Shown here piece by piece: positions 3,309 to 63,957 of a stretch of DNA of 64,000 nucleotides. The translations under genes were made by a program, and so were the position numbers. Within the stretch, counting starts at the first letter, position 1. Each line of letters opens with the position of its first letter. This stretch comes from a virus. Location of the stretch: the IMG/VR virus record IMGVR_UViG_3300042311_000577, positions 58,795-122,794 of that record; one strand, given 5' to 3'. The notes below the pieces were generated by a model, which saw only the letters and a list, made by a program, of their open reading frames with translations, was not told the DNA's origin and searched no databases.

Positions 3309-5753
3309 TTACATGATAAAAGGATTCCATGAATCTACATAAACATAACCTCCATTTGCATAAAGCTGGCCTCCAAACTTACCTTTTAATTCTTTAAGTG
3401 CTAAGTAATTTGCCTTCTCATAAGTCATACCATTTCTCATATGTTCTCTAACTATATCTTCTTTGGTAGGACCAGTTGCTCCAGTCAATGGTTTTTCAAC
3501 TCCAGTATGATACATCATTCCATAATCATATTCTGTATTAAACTGTGGAGTAACTTGATTTCTATTATACACGTTAGCCATTTGATCATTAGCCTCCATT
3601 ACAGCTCTTGTTGTATTAAAGTTTCTTTTAGTTTTAAGAGCACTACTTAAATTTTGGTCTCTAGCTTGATTTGCTAATCCTTGATTCAATATGTTAGTTC
3701 TAGCTTCATTTACAGCCATATCCATTTGTCCCTTTCTTGCATTGACTGAATTTTGAGTATTTACATTTCTTGCTTGTACATCAGCTACTGCACCTACTCC
3801 AGCATTTAATGCTTTATCTAGTAAGTCACCCATTTGTTTTTGTTTATCAGCTGTAGAACCTGCTTGTGAATACATGATTGCATTTTTCATATTATTAGCT
3901 GCTGAATTTGCAGCATGTAATTTTGCATCAAATGATTCATAAGCACCAGATGTTTTTGCATCAGGAGGAAGAACAACATTTGTACGTGCTACACCTGTAT
4001 TAGCTAAAGCGTTAGTTAAAACATTAAGTTTTGCATTAACACTCCAACGTGGTTTATCAGCAACTTGTCCTTGACTTCCATCTTGACAAACACACTGCTC
4101 TTCATTTTCAATAGGAAATTCTTTTACTTCTCCTGTTACAGGATCAGTACATCTACAAATAAGAGATTCTGTTTCTCCACCACATGATGGATCATCAGTT
4201 ATACAGTTTCCATTTTCATCTTTTTTTGCAACTTTTGGTGTACCATCTTCATTGTTTATTGTATTTCCATTTTTATCTTTACAATAACATGGTTCATCAT
4301 TAGGTTCATTAACTATATGTTCAGCAATTTGTGATTTACCTTTTACACCTTCAATACAATCTTTATATATACCACCAGCAGCAGGATCACTAATTATTGT
4401 GTTTATTGCTTTTTGTTTTGCTTCTTCCCATTTTGGATTTGGATTACCGCTAGCATCAGTTGGTCTTTGACCATCTAAATGACCTGGGAAAACTCTTACT
4501 AACATATCATCAATATCTAATGATGCTTGTATTTTTTTACAAACACCATTTGCAATAGCTACAGGATCACCTCCTCCACCGCCACCACCATGCCAAGTAA
4601 CTGCTTGACCTTTAACAATTTTGTATTGACCTTTTGTTCCTATTGAAGATGTAGAAGGAATCCAATCTGAACCAGAAGAAAGTGAACTAACTTGTTTTGA
4701 ACCAATGTTATTTACAGTAACTTGACTATCTCCGGGACCACCAAACTTAGGCATACCACCGTAAGCCATTTGTTCAGGATGATAAGGAAAATCATATCCA
4801 CCCATTTGCATTCCATAAGCCGCATATGGTATTCCTCCATAAGCCATCATACCAGGTTGTTGCATCATTTCTGGAGGAGGTATACTACCTTGCATTTGAG
4901 CCATTGATTCTGGTGAAGCTACTGGAGCTCCACTAGGCATTTGTTGTGGTGCAGCCGGAGCTTGTTGTGCTCCTTGATTCATCATTGCTTGATCTGCTTC
5001 CATAGCTTGCATAGGATTAGTTTGTTGCATTTCTTCTGCTAACATTGGATTTTGTTCTTGCGGCATTTCAGGATTAACACCTTGATTCATTGATTGGGCT
5101 AATTGATCAGCTTGTTCTTTTAACTCAGGCATTAAATCTTGTTCAGAAATTCCATTAACTTCCATATAAGGTTTAGACATAGCAGGAATACCTTGAGGAA
5201 AACCTTTCATTGATTCTTGAACTAAAGCTAAAGCACCTAACTTCATGATAAAGTTTTTGATCATTATAGTAGCAGTATCTCTTTCTAGTTTACCACTATC
5301 AGGATCTAATAATATAGACTTATATTTATTTATGTTATAAGGCTTTGCAAGTTCTGCTGGAGTATAACCACCTTTCTTAGGTGTTTTATTAAACATAGCA
5401 AGAACATTTGCATCATTTATTTTTAATGAAGCTGTGTCACTAAAGATAAAAGTATCATCAGGAAGATTTAAAGGAACACCTCCTTCATGATGTCTTTTAC
5501 CAATAATCTTTAAATGATCAGGAATTGATTGACCACTTATAGGACCAAATGCAGTTTCCCCACCTTCAGCTTCTAGATTTGCTTTATCTCTTGGTACAGC
5601 ACTTAGTGTATCTTTAACTCCTTCATAAGATCTACCATCTAATTTTCTATAATCAGCTCCACCGAAGGCACCTGGTTTTAAAGACAATGAACCATCAACC
5701 TGCTTTCCGTAAGCAGCCTTATCTAAAGGTAATTTTGTTATTTGAACTCTCAT
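3309..5753 (-). CDS. Probable virion cargo/ejection protein, 814 aa
   Basis: Long ORF with EAEGGE and GKRHHEGG motifs near the N-terminus, a Gln/Met/Pro low-complexity linker and many xxxGG motifs; located after the tail genes. Confidence 0.65.
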   Translation of the reverse strand: MRVQITKLPLDKAAYGKQVDGSLSLKPGAFGGADYRKLDGRSYEGVKDTLSAVPRDKANLEAEGGETAFGPISGQSIPDHLKIIGKRHHEGGVPLNLPDDTFIFSDTASLKINDANVLAMFNKTPKKGGYTPAELAKPYNINKYKSILLDPDSGKLERDTATIMIKNFIMKLGALALVQESMKGFPQGIPAMSKPYMEVNGISEQDLMPELKEQADQLAQSMNQGVNPEMPQEQNPMLAEEMQQTNPMQAMEADQAMMNQGAQQAPAAPQQMPSGAPVASPESMAQMQGSIPPPEMMQQPGMMAYGGIPYAAYGMQMGGYDFPYHPEQMAYGGMPKFGGPGDSQVTVNNIGSKQVSSLSSGSDWIPSTSSIGTKGQYKIVKGQAVTWHGGGGGGGDPVAIANGVCKKIQASLDIDDMLVRVFPGHLDGQRPTDASGNPNPKWEEAKQKAINTIISDPAAGGIYKDCIEGVKGKSQIAEHIVNEPNDEPCYCKDKNGNTINNEDGTPKVAKKDENGNCITDDPSCGGETESLICRCTDPVTGEVKEFPIENEEQCVCQDGSQGQVADKPRWSVNAKLNVLTNALANTGVARTNVVLPPDAKTSGAYESFDAKLHAANSAANNMKNAIMYSQAGSTADKQKQMGDLLDKALNAGVGAVADVQARNVNTQNSVNARKGQMDMAVNEARTNILNQGLANQARDQNLSSALKTKRNFNTTRAVMEANDQMANVYNRNQVTPQFNTEYDYGMMYHTGVEKPLTGATGPTKEDIVREHMRNGMTYEKANYLALKELKGKFGGQLYANGGYVYVDSWNPFIM

Positions 5754-59311: not shown

Positions 59312-59736
59312 GATACCTGAAACATTTCCCTTTCTTTTCTAGCCCTTATCTTGATTTGCATTTGTATTCCTAATGGAATACTGCAAACCTGACAGTTGAT
59401 ATATTAAAATTTTCTACATAGAAAATATAAAGCAGCAGGCTACTTGCTACTTGCTACTTTCAGCTTTCATATTTCTACATTATAGTATTATTCACACTAT
59501 AATTTACACATCATGCATACTCACCCGGGAATGCTTGATACCTGCAGTATAGTAATTGTACATTACTTGTAAATTTCAAAGCTTATTTTATCTAAGCTTA
59601 TGTATGTTATTGTTATTGAGTATCACTCTCATACCAATACTATACTATCTATCTAGAAAACATATATACTATATAATACTTTAGTATTATTATATATTTT
59701 ATATAGCTAAACCTAGTAACCAATAAATATCAATAT

Positions 59737-60012
59737 ATGAAAACAAGAAACTATGATTTACTTGTTATAGGCATTATGATAGGAACATTAGCTACTGTTC
59801 TTATAGATGTACTATTATCTTTTGCTTTCTCTTTAGATAGAGAGAACAAGTCTCCGGAAAAATCCTACAAGGCTGTAGGTGGTAATATTGACATAGAATA
59901 TTACTTGGAAGTATCTGAAGACTCAATTTGGGTTGAAGGTGTACAATCTAAGAAAGTATACAGTGGTAAATACTCTGACTTGGATTCATTAATCAATGTA
60001 GATAACTTATAG
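59737..60012 (+). CDS. Membrane-anchored hypothetical protein, 91 aa
   Basis: N-terminal TM helix. Confidence 0.65.
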   Translation: MKTRNYDLLVIGIMIGTLATVLIDVLLSFAFSLDRENKSPEKSYKAVGGNIDIEYYLEVSEDSIWVEGVQSKKVYSGKYSDLDSLINVDNL

Positions 60013-60019
60013 TTATCTA

Positions 60020-60475
60020 TTCCTTACTGTTAGCAAACAGTGACAAACCTGTGGGGCTACTATTGGGTTCTATATTTCTCCTGCAAAGAGATTTATAGTG
60101 CTACATATCATTTGCAGTGATATAATCCAAAGTTAGTGCAGACTTAAAAATCAGGTATTTTACATATAGCATATTGATAAAGCTATATGAGTTTAATTTA
60201 AACTAGACAGTTTTATACACGGGAGCAATCTGGCAGTGTGATCCTGTTGACCACAGCAGTAATATGTGGTATGTCATTTATCTATTCTCCTACACAAGAT
60301 TCCACTTGGGAGAATACAGCTGACTGAAGTGGAATTCAGTTTTACTTACAAGAATAGAACTCAGCGGTTCTTACTATGATCTAGGAAATCATATGTGCTT
60401 GTATTTTATGTGTAATTGAGCACAACATTATTATCTAACTATGATCTAGTCCTGTGTACCTAGCACAGGCAAGTC
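60020..60475 (+). ncRNA. Candidate large structured ncRNA
   Basis: No ORF; more than ten pairable hairpins, several with GCA-ending loops, and a 9-bp pseudoknot pairing (60299-60307 with 60327-60335). Confidence 0.5.
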
Positions 60476-60499
60476 CTCAAATTAAAAAAATTAAAAGCT

Positions 60500-60736
60500 A
60501 TGATTTCAAATTCAATGATTGCAAACAGAGAGTACGTGGATACTTATATGCATTTTAACACTAAAATTACTGAAGAGTTGATTAAAACAGCTGAAAAACT
60601 ATTCAGAAGAGAACTAACTCCTCATCAAACTAGAGAGATTCATAAAATGGAACTCAAAGATAAGCAGTGGTTACTTAAACAGTATAAATCAGATATCAAG
60701 TTCACTAAAGAACCTGATCTTGATCATTTATACTAA
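60500..60736 (+). CDS. Hypothetical protein, 78 aa
   Basis: ORF with an A-rich leader. Confidence 0.6.
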   Translation: MISNSMIANREYVDTYMHFNTKITEELIKTAEKLFRRELTPHQTREIHKMELKDKQWLLKQYKSDIKFTKEPDLDHLY

Positions 60737-61882: not shown

Positions 61883-61911
61883 TGTCCTGAGCAGGACAAT
61901 AAACTGCTCAT
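61883..61911 (+). ncRNA. Small H-type pseudoknot motif, copy 2
   Basis: TGTCC-TGAGCA-GGACA hairpin whose loop is complementary to TGCTCA at 61905-61910. Confidence 0.55.
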
Positions 61912-61955
61912 TTACTTAAAAATTAATTCAAAAATCAATTTAAAACAAAAAGCAA

Positions 61956-62867
61956 ATGAGAAATTTAGCAAACAAAGGGTTGAGCATGTCCCAAGCACAA
62001 AGTATTAGTAATCTTTGTAATCAAAATGCACAAGAAATCCAAAGAGAATTGGATTCTTACAACAACTGTAGTAAATCTATTACAGTTGAAGGTCAGGTAT
62101 ATTCATTACAAGATGGAGCACCTATGCCGGATAACATCCTTGACTTATTGAAGAATAAGGGTGACTTGCATGCTTGTCAGGCTTTCTTGATGGAATCAAT
62201 CAAGAGCAAAGATGCTGAACTTTCTAGACTTAAGTATAGTCAACCTGATTTATCTCACTTAGTTAAACCTGAGAGAGAGTTAGTAGATGACTATAAGATA
62301 GAAGATGGTGTTGATGAATCATGGGGTTGGTCTCAATTATCTGATTCTTTATATGCTGAATACTTACAAGCTGAAGCAATGGCTTCACACTTGGGTCAAT
62401 TCATCCATAAAAGTGGTAAACTAACTCAATTGAGAAAGGAATTACCAAATACTCCTAGTATTGAGTGGTTTGAAGTTGAACAAGGTAAGAAGACACCAGT
62501 GAAGGTGACTAAGCATCATTTAGCTCCTGTCTTAATGAGTATTCATGAAGACATTGCTGAACAGCATAGAGTCTATGAGCAGAAAGTAAATTACTTTAAA
62601 GCCAAAGTTAAAAACTTGGTGAGTGATGAAAATGCTAGAATCCAAAGAGTTAATGCTGATAAAGCTGCTGAGTACTTAAAGCTTGAGAAAGAAGCTCATG
62701 AGAAGTATCAGTTATCAATGGATGCATACAATGGTGAAGTTCTTAGACTTACTATGGAGTTTAATTCTCAGAGAGAGTTAGACATCAAAAATACTGCAGC
62801 ATTGAGAATCAATGTTGATCCTAGATTTCAGCATGTAATTGACATGTTCATTGCACCTGAAAAATAG
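61956..62867 (+). CDS. Helical/coiled-coil protein of unknown function, 303 aa
   Basis: Long ORF with an A-rich leader; GLSMSQAQSISNLCNQ start; heptad-rich C-terminal half. Confidence 0.8.
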   Translation: MRNLANKGLSMSQAQSISNLCNQNAQEIQRELDSYNNCSKSITVEGQVYSLQDGAPMPDNILDLLKNKGDLHACQAFLMESIKSKDAELSRLKYSQPDLSHLVKPERELVDDYKIEDGVDESWGWSQLSDSLYAEYLQAEAMASHLGQFIHKSGKLTQLRKELPNTPSIEWFEVEQGKKTPVKVTKHHLAPVLMSIHEDIAEQHRVYEQKVNYFKAKVKNLVSDENARIQRVNADKAAEYLKLEKEAHEKYQLSMDAYNGEVLRLTMEFNSQRELDIKNTAALRINVDPRFQHVIDMFIAPEK

Positions 62868-62876
62868 TGAACTAAT

Positions 62877-63182
62877 TAGGTGAGTAAGAGATAAGCACAA
62901 GCTGATTCTCTTACTCTTTATACCTAGTGACAGAAATTTAGATAAAATTCAATGGTTGATAACCATTATAACATTATGGAATGTACTTTTAATACATAAA
63001 CCCAGAAACCGCTTCTCTTCAAAACTTATAAAACTGAGATAGAACTCACCGTTAGACAGGTTACTGCATCATAGATATGCTGTTGGCTAACATTGAGACT
63101 TGGTATTTGTATTTGCCTTTGTAGAAGAGAAGGTCTTTGAATTTGTATTTGAATTGGACTTTAGCTATATATTTCTGTCACT
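62877..63182 (+). ncRNA. Candidate structured ncRNA with hexamer-periodic tracts
   Basis: 10-bp hairpin (62882-62891/62907-62916), 12-bp closing stem (62926-62937/63171-63182), 9-bp inner stem (63012-63020/63124-63132), and GNNTT(T/G) repeats at 63097-63162. Confidence 0.6.
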
Positions 63183-63210
63183 CGGTAACTATTTACTTAA
63201 AAATTATTCT

Positions 63211-63957
63211 ATGGAAAAACTTCAAATTTTAGATGGAGGTTATAGTTACAATAACTATAAAGAAATAATGCAGTATTCTGAAGAAAAACAACGCATGTTG
63301 TTTTATGGAAAGCAGGTTTATGACTGTAGCTATATTATAAGAAAAGAAACCGATACTCATATTTATTGGAAAGTTGTAAATAAAACACCAAAATTTTATA
63401 ATAACAAGTTATTTTATAAAACTGAGAATAAGTCAGGTATAACTTATGATAAGAAAACAAAATCAATTAAAATATGGTTTGGTTTACCTTATTACAGATT
63501 ATCTAATATTATTCTTGATGATGTTTATTCAACATTCAAAAAGAAATGGGTATTAAAATGTTCTACTGGAATTGGTTCATTGATTAACAATACAATATTT
63601 AAAAGAATACTTAAAGATAAGGTTCTTAATGAAAAGGATATTTGTAGAGATTATTTAAAAACTTGTCCGTATAAGCATAAAGAGATTGATCTTGATCAAT
63701 TTAAAAATTTTGCTTCTTCTCTATATACTTCACCAAAAACATATAGTGATTATTTTCTATGTGCAAAGGACTGTAGTGATTTAATGAAATTTCTTCCAAA
63801 TAACACATACAATCCGGTAGTAGATAGTTTAGTTAATAAGGCTCTTATGTTAGATGAAAAACTTGATTTTAGTTTATCTCAGAATGAGTTTGATAATTTA
63901 GAGATAAAATGGACAAAATTAGTTTCAGATAAAAATATAATACTTCAGTTTATATGA
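63211..63957 (+). CDS. Hypothetical protein (~248 aa)
   Basis: Likely start MEKLQ at 63211 after an A-rich leader; ATGA overlap with a further ORF at 63954 that runs off the window. Confidence 0.65.
   Translation: MEKLQILDGGYSYNNYKEIMQYSEEKQRMLFYGKQVYDCSYIIRKETDTHIYWKVVNKTPKFYNNKLFYKTENKSGITYDKKTKSIKIWFGLPYYRLSNIILDDVYSTFKKKWVLKCSTGIGSLINNTIFKRILKDKVLNEKDICRDYLKTCPYKHKEIDLDQFKNFASSLYTSPKTYSDYFLCAKDCSDLMKFLPNNTYNPVVDSLVNKALMLDEKLDFSLSQNEFDNLEIKWTKLVSDKNIILQFI

Follow-up and report, generated by a model that had tools for sequence, protein, structure and literature searches.

A phage gene for a 303-amino-acid protein is followed by a stretch of repeated hexamers and possible stems. Is this stretch a structured RNA, does it belong with the gene, and what might the two do together? 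The questions were addressed in a stretch of 64,000 nucleotides of viral DNA (referred to here as the window) and in relatives of the locus. A reading of the sequence made beforehand (the original prediction) had proposed a protein–RNA system here, and all of the features that it named were found in place.

The structured RNA and its architecture

A structured non-coding RNA of about 320 nt is encoded on the + strand at window positions 62872-63195, behind the 303-amino-acid gene. Covariance model R1 matched it with 313.6 bits (E 2.2e-71) and matched nothing else in the 64-kb window; nhmmer found the RNA in single copy in the source genome. The gene, the RNA and its parts lie as follows.

61956..62867, + strand: open reading frame of the 303-amino-acid partner gene
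62872..63195, + strand: whole structured RNA, full-length match to covariance model R1
62882-62891 / 62907-62916, + strand: 10-bp stem of hairpin P1, which spans 62882..62916
62894-62896 / 62901-62903, + strand: inner 3-bp helix of P1 (AGC/GCT), with a conserved loop
62926-62937 / 63171-63182, + strand: 12-bp core of closing stem P2, AGTGACAGAAAT/ATTTCTGTCACT
62921-62937 / 63171-63187, + strand: P2 as extended (5' strand / 3' strand)
62938..63011, + strand: variable 5' strand from P2 to P3, here with hairpins at 62951-62967 and 62981-62997
63012-63020 / 63124-63132, + strand: 9-bp stem P3, CTTCTCTTC/GAAGAGAAG
63051..63091, + strand: P4, with GTTAG/CTAAC at 63051-63055 / 63087-63091
63057-63059 / 63083-63085, + strand: upper part of P4, CAG/TTG after an A-G mismatch
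63095..63123, + strand: tract 1, a conserved GAGAC lead-in and then four NNNUUG-type hexamers
63133..63170, + strand: tract 2, GG, five NNNUUG-type hexamers and a conserved CTATAT
63097-63162, + strand: eleven in-phase hexamers beginning with G

As evidence for RNA structure, comparative data were given more weight than fold z-scores, which were -3.5 on the + strand and -4.7 on the - strand (0/100 shuffles as good). In a model-based alignment of 65 rows, all 46 modelled pairs had changes on both sides. Compensatory cells in this alignment numbered 584 compared with 138 in shuffles, and none of 500 shuffles reached 584. Paired cells made up 97.5% of the total, against 77.8% after shuffling and 38-49% with partners slid, and 97.6% in P2 (helix 3) and 100% in P3 (helix 4), pairing figures that are somewhat inflated by the fitting of the alignment to the covariance model. 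An independent MAFFT alignment of 34 copies, folded with RNAalifold, gave 50 pairs, 17 of them with compensatory change. G-U and U-G pairs filled 194 cells, compared with 32 for A-C and C-A, and this excess identifies + as the RNA strand. The claim of a real structured RNA was thus borne out by the compensated pairs, the paired cells and the strand asymmetry, and the three stems named in the original prediction all covary across relatives.

The strand asymmetry and the compensated long-range stems also bear on whether the locus works as DNA (an iteron origin or a promoter array) or as a small coding gene. The fold is equally good on both strands, the sequence is AT-rich with short repeats, and the tract of the window is in frame with the next ORF. 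However, the cumulative GC-skew minimum lies at window position ~59731, 3 kb upstream, and a 6-nt period misfits the helical repeat of DNA. Strand asymmetry and reading-frame results contradict a DNA-level or coding role, which has scarcely any credibility left. In the coding test, the best frame was open in just 13 of 62 copies, and the longest ATG ORF inside the RNA had a median length of 16 amino acids; the protein-coding reading was rejected. The idea that the tract is a short ORF or the N-terminus of the next protein fell with it, because frames are not kept, the two tracts are parted by a 1-nt indel and relatives have different genes downstream. A role as a template was likewise set aside; no reverse transcriptase was noticed in a general reading of the neighbourhood.

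At the 5' end of the RNA, P1 adjoins a long rod that is closed by P2 and has P3 and P4 stacked inside. Compensated pairs number 13 of 13 in P1 (helices 1 and 2 of the 65-row alignment), 9 of 9 in P3 and 8 of 8 in P4 (helices 5 and 6), and in P2 all 16 pairs changed on both sides. A conserved ACCGC stands just 5' of the P3 strand CTTCTCTTC. P4 is topped by a variable distal hairpin, where the insert measures 3-87 nt across copies. Variation is tolerated on the 5' side of the rod: the strand from P2 to P3 is 53-92 nt long in 62 copies, and its hairpins are lineage-specific and differ between relatives. The 3' side carries two length-invariant UUG tracts. The mini-pseudoknot proposed upstream of the gene does exist, but it occurs in some relatives only.

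The RNA matches no Rfam family and is absent from RNA catalogues. GOLLD and ROOL are large structured non-coding RNAs of phages and bacteria, both in Rfam, whose function was long unknown. The present RNA resembles them in being conserved, intricately folded and phage-borne; it differs in its smaller size (~320 nt), its architecture, its strictly linked protein gene and its lack of an Rfam match. A search of Rfam 15 gave no match within 62868-63210 at E<=10, and among eight relatives searched at E<=0.01 only flanking tRNA genes scored above the gathering score. In the relative L061, RF04354 reached 32.7 bits (gathering score 65.7) at a site that overlaps a flanking tRNA gene on the opposite strand. 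ARAGORN, run for tRNA and tmRNA genes, found none in the window or in the whole genome. GenBank phages searched at the DNA level with 61883-63250 gave no match. No description of the RNA was found in a full-text literature search, and the passages on Crassvirales in PMC9226505 concern matters unrelated to it.

Inheritance of the RNA with the gene

The link between the RNA and the 303-amino-acid gene was examined from both ends. Starting from the protein, 78 of the 80 loci examined had an RNA profile match 3' of the gene; the remaining two have only -3 and 205 nt of downstream sequence. The covariance model also picks up a truncated copy of the RNA in L051. Starting from the RNA motif, 118 loci were obtained, 94 of them with the RNA, in a set that partly shares contigs with the protein-first set. 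The same-strand gene was present in all 90 of the RNA loci with enough upstream sequence, and the 4 others are end-cut contigs. The proposed tie therefore held in every testable relative and in both search directions.

The original prediction had also suspected similar pairs in other phages, and this was correct: 126 relatives were found in IMG/VR, and the protein family has 789 representatives at E<=0.001. In tblastn searches of GenBank phages, the window protein and P0112 had no match; only the remote member P0150 was matched, in two gut records. The gut phage PQ006092.1 encodes a remote member with 29% identity to P0150 and has the same RNA architecture downstream (26 bits, E 7.5e-6). Small 'hypothetical proteins' annotated at the position of the RNA, as in PQ006092.1, are probably mis-calls over the RNA gene. 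Among prokaryote genomes, the gene was found in only 5 MAG contigs, so no host can be named.

The genes on either side are not conserved: the 303-amino-acid gene occurs in 168 loci, its upstream neighbour in 37 and its downstream neighbour in 6. PHROGs recognised a single HNH endonuclease among six conserved downstream proteins. These comparisons are best explained if the gene and the ~320-nt RNA are one inherited module of a large group of phages, crAss-like and related. The module spans protein divergence to below 30% identity and genomes from ~98 kb to contigs of more than 600 kb, was found in lake, river and gut samples, and is among the few parts of the early region kept across relatives.

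Strict adjacency would also be expected of a cis-acting part of the gene's mRNA. As a 3' UTR element, the RNA could stabilise the message against 3' exonucleases, terminate or insulate the unit, or mediate autoregulation by the protein. P1 starts ~7-18 nt past the stop codon in most copies, and a contig from an RNA library (62761-62911) bridges the stop codon and P1. In distant relatives P2 is followed on its 3' side by a U-run, as in an intrinsic terminator, and the variety of downstream genes suggests that the RNA belongs to the gene upstream. Against such a role, ~320 nt with conserved loops and with periodic tracts invariant in sequence and length far exceed the needs of stability or termination. 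In L044/L045, L067 and L073, moreover, the RNA lies ~150-220 nt from the gene, with a small ORF in between in L067 and L073.

Metatranscriptome data also speak against a purely cis-acting element. In X15 and X18, two of four RNA runs examined, contig depths on the RNA were 604, 272, 230, 104, 58 and 46, compared with 2-3.3 for the flanking coding contigs of X15 and 4.3 for the only partner-gene contig of X18. The RNA depth in X15 was 14 to 300 times that of the coding part, a contrast that only hints at abundance because contig depth pools related phages that have the conserved blocks of the RNA in common and because DNA may be present in RNA libraries. From runs X16 and X17 came only short pieces of relatives, on 63022-63065, and the stretch that they leave uncovered is uninformative. 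With these points on both sides, a cis-acting role is judged to be distinctly unlikely.

The hexamer tracts

The conserved unit of the tracts is better written NNNUUG, in which U4 and G6 are the most constrained (entropy near 0, against 0.8-1.7 at positions 1-3). The tract 2 strand is 38 nt long in 61 of 62 copies, compared with 53-92 nt on the opposite strand, and 192 of its 202 TTG occurrences share one phase. The tract 1 strand measures 33-36 nt in 60 of the 62 copies, and 151 TTG occurrences lie in one phase compared with 41 shifted by one; some relatives have a 1-nt insertion between this tract and the inner stem P3. A strict hexamer phase had been predicted. Its 6-nt UUG period is conserved, but the unbroken run of eleven hexamers is limited to the window and close relatives of it. 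In the 561 pairs formed by 34 close copies, the pairwise difference was 0.044 for UUG, 0.28 for the spacer NN and 0.35 for the gene's fourfold-degenerate sites. UUG is kept every 6 nt, and the spacers change at a nearly neutral rate; in tract 1 the variable bases are partly conserved among close relatives. The result is an unusual design, in which invariant 38-nt periodic tracts face freely varying strands.

Are the tracts paired or free? The proposed pairing with A-rich facing strands did not survive comparison, since predicted pairing ranges from 0 to 0.75 between copies and the facing strand varies in length. The length invariance of the tracts suggests that they are displayed single-stranded. 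Thermodynamic folding leaves only ~40-45% of the tract bases unpaired, which counts against a docking role such as the one proposed below. A candidate GAGAC/GUCUU pseudoknot between the tract starts was also seen; both of its sides are nearly invariant, and by eye it is broken in L049.

The idea that the tracts resemble repeated binding sites gained from these comparisons, in which a periodic 6-nt constraint of the expected kind was found. In formal terms, the TRAP site is the closest model for a possible mode of action of the tracts. In the Bacillus trp leader, this site consists of 11 GAG/UAG triplets with 2-3-nt spacers, bound round an 11-mer beta-sandwich ring, and HutP sites are similar. 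The likeness is one of design only: a conserved triplet of fixed period, unconstrained spacers, and a fixed number and spacing of units. By this design, one binding unit per UUG would be predicted. The present RNA differs in having UUG at an exact period of 6, in two tracts inside a folded RNA of 320 nt and not in an mRNA leader; the neighbouring protein is without any Pfam match and was modelled as a dimer, with no ring. TRAP protein was not recognised as the binder, no Pfam cut-off being reached by the 303-amino-acid protein or by 55 relatives.

The partner protein and possible roles of the pair

Neither a family nor a fold could be recognised for the protein. PHROGs and Pfam gave nothing above cut-off for three local proteins, and Pfam searches of the 55 relatives gave sub-threshold coiled-coil noise only (for example XLF_CC in 16/55). 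No RNA-binding domain was recognisable in the 303-amino-acid protein. A profile search against PDB sequences found nothing below E 0.5, and Foldseek against PDB found no match at E<=0.001. VIA-align wide returned generic helical bundles (best Z 6.9), BFVD a single match that is an uncharacterised family member, and the ESM Atlas unnamed clusters only (best score 0.78). Such empty fold searches do not make the fold new. The AF2 model (pLDDT 86.8, pTM 0.77) shows the series helix, beta-hairpin, long helix two times and then a helical hairpin. With a pI of 5.7 (the median of 64 homologues is 5.8), the protein is mildly acidic, and it has conserved basic residues on its long helices.

Oligomer modelling had been suggested in the original prediction, and the homodimer model passed its controls, with a score of 0.54 (runs 0.54, 0.46 and 0.55) against 0.00 for the best of 3 controls. 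The mark of 0.54 was reached by 20/30 same-chain-pair structures and 1/23 single-chain structures, counts that apply only approximately because the model was built on an alignment made in this analysis. Contacts shared between the runs amount to at least 54%, with a partner pLDDT of at least 78. The protein is accordingly predicted to be at least dimeric. For its candidacy as the binder of the RNA, the homodimer model is the sole structural support.

What might the pair do? Tentatively, and with slightly less than an even chance, the gene product and the RNA form a trans-acting ribonucleoprotein with the protein on the periodic UUG sites. The RNA would be transcribed with the gene or just behind it and would accumulate as a stable, probably processed species. 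Large internal loops would present both tracts as a regular series of about nine docking sites with one UUG each. These sites may be occupied by an oligomerising protein, and the co-inherited 303-amino-acid product is the most economical candidate. The particle would act in trans, probably early in infection, a timing suggested by the position of the gene at the start of the + arm and by host-type promoters in two relatives. In these two, a sequence of the form TTTG-N19-TAtaTTTG, which we take to be a host-type promoter, was read by eye before the gene. A scan for sigma-70 promoters and terminators gave sites no commoner than in shuffles, with a model unsuited to Bacteroidota. The acidity of the protein and its lack of a detectable RNA-binding domain count against its binding the RNA. 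If the two do assemble, the particle would represent a novel type of phage ribonucleoprotein, in which an RNA absent from the catalogues is joined to a protein of no known fold.

The same features of the protein would suit a decoy. About nine UUG sites could soak up a host RNA-binding protein, for instance a Bacteroidota protein of the RRM or KH type, or the RNA could mimic 6S RNA towards host RNA polymerase. The neighbouring gene would then belong to the same early takeover programme and would not encode the binder. 6S RNA is abundant and rod-shaped, with conserved single-stranded bubbles flanked by covarying helices; it binds the RNA polymerase holoenzyme and templates product RNA. The present RNA shares the rod shape and the conserved loops between covarying helices, and its large asymmetric loops, its periodic conserved triplets and the high contig depth on it would fit a decoy, as would transcription by the host polymerase from the host-type promoters. 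It differs from 6S RNA in having two periodic tracts and not one promoter-like bubble, and in being tied to a protein gene, and the Rfam 6S models give no match. The Bacteroidota -7 motif is TAnnTTTG, and the tracts hold no such motif in register. A decoy would also leave the inseparability of gene and RNA in 90/90 testable loci unexplained, and the host factor is hypothetical. A decoy is thus considered unlikely, with a chance that is still worth weighing; if the RNA is one, it points to a host target in Bacteroidota.

Returning to a ribonucleoprotein of the two products, could the variable triplets carry information? In the VIPR system, phages encode the RAMP protein Vipr, whose fold has an RRM core, a G-loop and a thumb, and a vrRNA with 9-16 tandem YNNGG units, a conserved GGY and hypervariable NN positions by which targets are specified (bioRxiv 10.64898/2026.04.26.720920). 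As the Results of this preprint describe the system, the likeness lies in a phage protein gene with long non-coding flanks, motifs that alternate with variable bases and a structured constant part. A guide with such a discontinuous code would have UUG held by subunits and NNN reading a DNA or RNA target, and the variable positions are indeed the least constrained of the RNA. The vrRNA features given there are not matched, however: the unit here is the 6-nt NNNUUG and not a YNNGG pentamer, and 4 + 5 units are parted by P3 where vrRNA has one run. The variable bases are not hypervariable, changing no faster than fourfold-degenerate sites, and their partial conservation in tract 1 also argues against a guide. 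The protein model, helical with two beta-hairpins, lacks an RRM-like beta-alpha-beta core, and the fold searches listed no RAMP, which leaves room for families that they did not list. Contiguous blastn-short matching of the tracts to the phage's own genome gave no convincing complement, the best match to tract 1 being 17 nt with 1 mismatch (E 0.03). A guide of the VIPR kind is therefore held to be very improbable. There is a small chance that the (NNNUUG)n tracts are rulers on which a new, non-RAMP protein assembles at 6-nt steps, with the variable triplets reading a DNA or RNA target discontinuously. Such a ruler-guide particle would be an independent invention of VIPR-like logic, used early in infection by crAss-like phages of habitats as different as lakes and guts.

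The module is found inside a phage tRNA gene cluster or next to one in many lineages, which would be compatible with the ribonucleoprotein proposed above and raises a further possibility. The RNA could be a stable product of the tRNA cluster with a role in translation or tRNA biology, for example by presenting codon-like UUG triplets to tRNA-Leu anticodons or as a decoy for a tRNA-directed host defence. The tRNA region of phage T4 gives rise to the stable 'species 1 and 2' RNAs (rnaC and rnaD). The present RNA, if the ribonucleoprotein reading is right about its stability, is likewise a stable phage RNA, and in many relatives its place is within a cluster of tRNA genes or next to one, but it is larger and has a partner gene; we know of no relation in sequence or structure between them. 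The link from UUG to an anticodon is the triplet alone, the source genome is without any tRNA gene, and in close relatives the nearest one is 1-2.7 kb off, which makes a role in tRNA biology improbable. Same-strand tRNA genes nevertheless lie within 3 kb in 46/80 loci, and directly upstream in several distant lineages. In the L060/L061/L067-L078 lineages and in L068, the 3 kb upstream of the gene contain arrays of 5-12 tRNA genes, the last of which ends ~30-1450 nt before the gene; two of these arrays include tRNA-Leu(UAA). In L199, the gene is preceded by two tRNA-Arg genes, the last of which ends ~30 nt before it.

Conservation and fold of the RNA behind the 303-aa gene

All features listed in the original prediction were located where it had placed them, including a 10-bp hairpin, a 12-bp closing stem and a 9-bp inner stem in the gap behind the 303-aa gene.

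Features of the locus (window positions)
61956-62867 (+): 303-aa ORF of no recognised family
behind this ORF, to the next ATG at 63211: ORF-free gap of 344 nt
62872-63195 (+): the RNA, about 320 nt
63097-63162, within the RNA: eleven hexamers, in phase

No tRNA lies in the gap, and no Rfam model matches it at E<=10. Scanning IMG/VR from the protein gave 126 relatives, and 80 loci were retained. In nearly all 80 the gene is followed by about 300-450 nt poor in ORFs, though the next gene differs. The 34 distinct RNA copies of closer relatives (protein identity 69-97%) were aligned with MAFFT. In this alignment the RNA blocks are conserved more than the protein, compensatory changes are visible, and RNAalifold gives 50 pairs with double changes in 17. 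Its profile matches the region behind the gene in 78 of the 80 loci, the other two having downstream sequence of just -3 and 205 nt, and finds one copy in the window's own genome.

A covariance model was built with four helices: the 5' hairpin with an inner helix (P1), the closing stem (P2), the inner stem (P3) and a distal helix in two parts, placed by eye (P4). The search set held 64 sources, the window and 63 of the 80 loci, after omission of L027, which comes without downstream sequence, and of 16 loci that duplicate another locus exactly in the gene or the downstream stretch. Each of the 64 gave one plus-strand match, full length in 62 and clipped by contig ends in L003 and L051; L018 gave an additional weak minus-strand match. 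In the resulting 65-row alignment, whose fitting to the model favours pairing figures, standard pairs make up 97.5% of cells against 77.8% in 500 shuffles (0/500 reach the observed value) and fall to 38-49% on shifting the 3' partners by 1-3 columns; both-sided changes occur in 46/46 pairs and in 584 cells, against 138 in shuffles. The RNA structure is nevertheless secure, given how large the effect is and that the MAFFT alignment supports it independently. The predicted stems were thereby found, with compensation, in the downstream regions of homologous genes.

The fold belongs to the plus strand, which the flanking genes share, as indicated by the excess of G-U and U-G cells (194) over A-C and C-A cells (32). 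Compared with shuffled sequences, the gap folds more strongly on both strands (z = -3.5 on plus, z = -4.7 on minus; 0/100 shuffles equal). The short reading frame once offered for the hexamers failed, the best frame being open in at most 13 of 62 copies. Beside these results, the view that the region is a DNA-level element or coding sequence is scarcely credible. A full-text literature search found no description of the RNA in published papers. It is a new structured RNA with a wide distribution.

Periodic UUG tracts

Two runs of NNNUUG hexamers, tracts 1 and 2, lie on either side of P3. In 62 rows, after dropping the two clipped rows and the minus-strand row, constraint follows a clean 6-nt period in both tracts. 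Within the hexamer, positions 1-3 have an entropy of 0.8-1.7 bits, position 5 a low one, and positions 4 and 6 (U and G) one close to zero. Geometry is the clearest result. Tract 2, which runs between P3 and P2 on the 3' strand, is 38 nt long in 61 of the 62 copies and 39 nt in the other, and the 5' strand opposite it varies from 53 to 92 nt. Likewise, tract 1 (3' strand, P4 to P3) is 33-36 nt long in 60/62 copies against 13-49 nt for its opposite strand. The predicted pairing of the tracts with these strands ranges from 0 to 0.75 depending on the copy. The tracts behave like periodic platforms of fixed length rather than like strands of a helix. The common hexamer phase expected among relatives held for tract 2, where 192 of 202 TTG occurrences share one phase; in tract 1 it is split (151 in one phase, 41 offset by one) because some lineages carry a 1-nt insertion beside P3.

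Per-site difference across 561 pairs of the 34 close copies
UUG positions: 0.044
NN spacer positions: 0.28
fourfold-degenerate sites of the adjacent gene: 0.35

By this measure the spacers evolve nearly neutrally and are not hypervariable. The nearest design analogue of the tracts is the TRAP site in the trp leader, where triplets are spaced at a short, fixed interval and the spacers are free; 6S RNA, GOLLD, ROOL and the T4 stable RNAs are looser likenesses. The vrRNA of VIPR, a system of phage protein and RNA, likewise has conserved bases alternating with variable ones and an adjacent phage protein gene (bioRxiv 10.64898/2026.04.26.720920). The present RNA departs from the defining vrRNA features of unit, unit number and hypervariability, and the modelled 303-aa protein does not appear RRM-like. 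A VIPR-like discontinuous guide is very improbable.

Linkage, distribution and expression

The RNA and one protein gene are inherited as a unit. When IMG/VR was scanned with the RNA motif alone, at least 118 loci were obtained. Among the matches listed, 94 contain the RNA, and the gene lies on the same strand in 90/90 with at least 1 kb upstream, the other 4 ending at contig edges; 24 are chance matches with neither RNA nor gene. These counts and the protein-first counts are not independent, since several contigs are common to both sets. Flanking genes are weakly conserved: 168 loci have the 303-aa gene, but only 37 have the upstream 258-aa gene and 6 the downstream 248-aa gene. The gene and the RNA are 3-30 nt apart in most loci; a few lineages carry an insert of 150-740 nt between them, and two inserts contain a small ORF. 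A cis-acting 3' element of the gene is an improbable account of the RNA. In L044 (3913-4069), and likewise L045, a G+C-richer insert of about 155 nt with its own hairpins lies between stop codon and P1.

A profile search of 1.84 billion representatives assigned 789 members to the protein family at E<=0.001 and 141 at E<=1e-30. The remote member P0150 matches PQ006092.1, a 98.6-kb rodent-faeces phage, at 29% identity. Directly behind the family gene of this phage, the covariance model finds the RNA (26 bits, E 7.5e-6), with P1, P2, P3, UUG hexamers and a terminal U-run recognisable. The annotated 58-aa 'hypothetical protein' XHH63432.1 (L199, the PQ006092.1 locus, 3385-3561 = PQ006092.1 88046-88222) lies wholly within this match, so that an RNA gene has probably been mis-annotated there as coding. 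Among 185,579 prokaryote genomes, the gene was found on just five contigs, all in MAGs. Very large viral contigs of 327-676 kb (L050, L053, L064, L065, L079) carry the module too, so it is not limited to phages near 100 kb in size.

The window's own genome lacks tRNA genes. Same-strand tRNA genes were found within 3 kb in 46/80 loci (32/48 closer, 14/32 distant). Closer relatives carry a single tRNA-Arg(UCU) 1-2.7 kb downstream, for instance at L001 3121-3195 on the module's strand. L060, L061/L063 and L067-L078 bear arrays of 5-12 tRNAs in the 3 kb upstream, ending from about 30 nt (L068) to about 1.45 kb (L067) ahead of the gene. In PQ006092.1 (tRNA genes at L199 2158-2423, same strand as the module), the last tRNA likewise ends about 30 nt ahead, and in L060 a suppressor tRNA (anticodon UUA) ends about 75 nt ahead. 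A tRNA- or translation-related role is quite improbable.

The stretch or part of it was found in 20 of 23 listed public runs, mostly lake or freshwater DNA samples; six are recorded as RNA. Four metatranscriptome runs were examined as contigs.

Contig depth in metatranscriptome runs X15 and X18 (depth pools related phages sharing conserved blocks; RNA libraries can include DNA; contigs give neither ends nor strand)
X15, 62875-62924 (P1): 604
X15, 63022-63063, two contigs: 58 and 46
X15, flanking coding sequence contigs: 2-3.3
X18, 62904-62939, two contigs: 272 and 230
X18, 63088-63192: 104

These depths are a hint, though no proof, of RNA levels far above those of the mRNA. One X15 contig (62761-62911) spans the stop codon and P1. 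About 38-70 nt ahead of the gene start in L062 and L079, TTTG-N19-TAtaTTTG (TTTG-N19-TATATTTG) was seen by eye, which we take to be the Bacteroidota housekeeping promoter consensus. It suggests that the gene is transcribed there by host polymerase and that the host belongs to the Bacteroidota.

Partner protein and genome context

The 303-aa protein matched no Pfam or PHROG family. Nor did Foldseek against PDB (E<=0.001) or a profile search of PDB sequences (best E not below 0.5) give a match. An AlphaFold2 model with 55 homologues is confident (pLDDT 86.8, pTM 0.77) and predicts two rounds of helix, beta-hairpin and long helix, then a long helical hairpin. Two-copy modelling scored 0.54 (runs 0.54, 0.46, 0.55; best of three controls 0.00), a level reached by 20/30 proteins whose solved structure pairs two copies of one chain and by 1/23 proteins solved as a single chain, a rough benchmark only, since a custom alignment was used. 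The runs had at least 54% of contacts in common, with partner pLDDT at least 78. The protein is mildly acidic (pI 5.7; median 5.8 across 64 homologues), and basic residues are conserved, several on the long helix 190-243. A decoy for a host factor is an unlikely role for the RNA. On the leading reading, tentative as a whole, the tracts would be periodic docking sites, their binder would be the partner protein as an oligomer, and the RNA would be stable and act in trans, early in infection.

The source virus is a tailed phage. The window is the final 64 kb of one 122,794-bp contig whose termini share a 127-bp overlap, which makes the genome a circle of 122,667 bp (G+C 31.7%). A large terminase, portal and major head protein are encoded, the portal having relatives in crAss-like phages of Bacteroides, Flavobacterium and Cellulophaga, and a long minus arm bears giant ORFs of 2,020-4,028 aa. 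The gene-RNA locus lies about 3.5 kb inside the plus arm, whose start is marked by a switch of strand near window 58,400. Cumulative GC skew reaches its minimum at window ~59,731. GC- and AT-skew cumulative minima lie in the ORF-poor start of the plus arm, at window 59338-60500 (genome ~118,500-119,250), a candidate replication origin region.

The mini-pseudoknot predicted ahead of the gene (window 61886-61911) is present here and upstream of the gene in L001, L006, L007, L012, L015, L019, L024, L033 and others. By eye, part of the close relatives share it, with a compensatory swap (GAGCA...TGCTC vs GGACA...TGTCC), and others, e.g. L004, L013 and L016, lack the element, which is therefore not obligatory to the module. 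An exact 16-nt direct repeat, ATTTACTTAAAAATTA, occurs at window 61910-61925 and 63191-63206, with only these two exact copies in the whole genome. One copy follows the upstream mini-pseudoknot and the other the RNA 3' end, each shortly ahead of the next start codon; the repeat is a possible start signal for transcription or translation in this phage and in L001, its closest relative.
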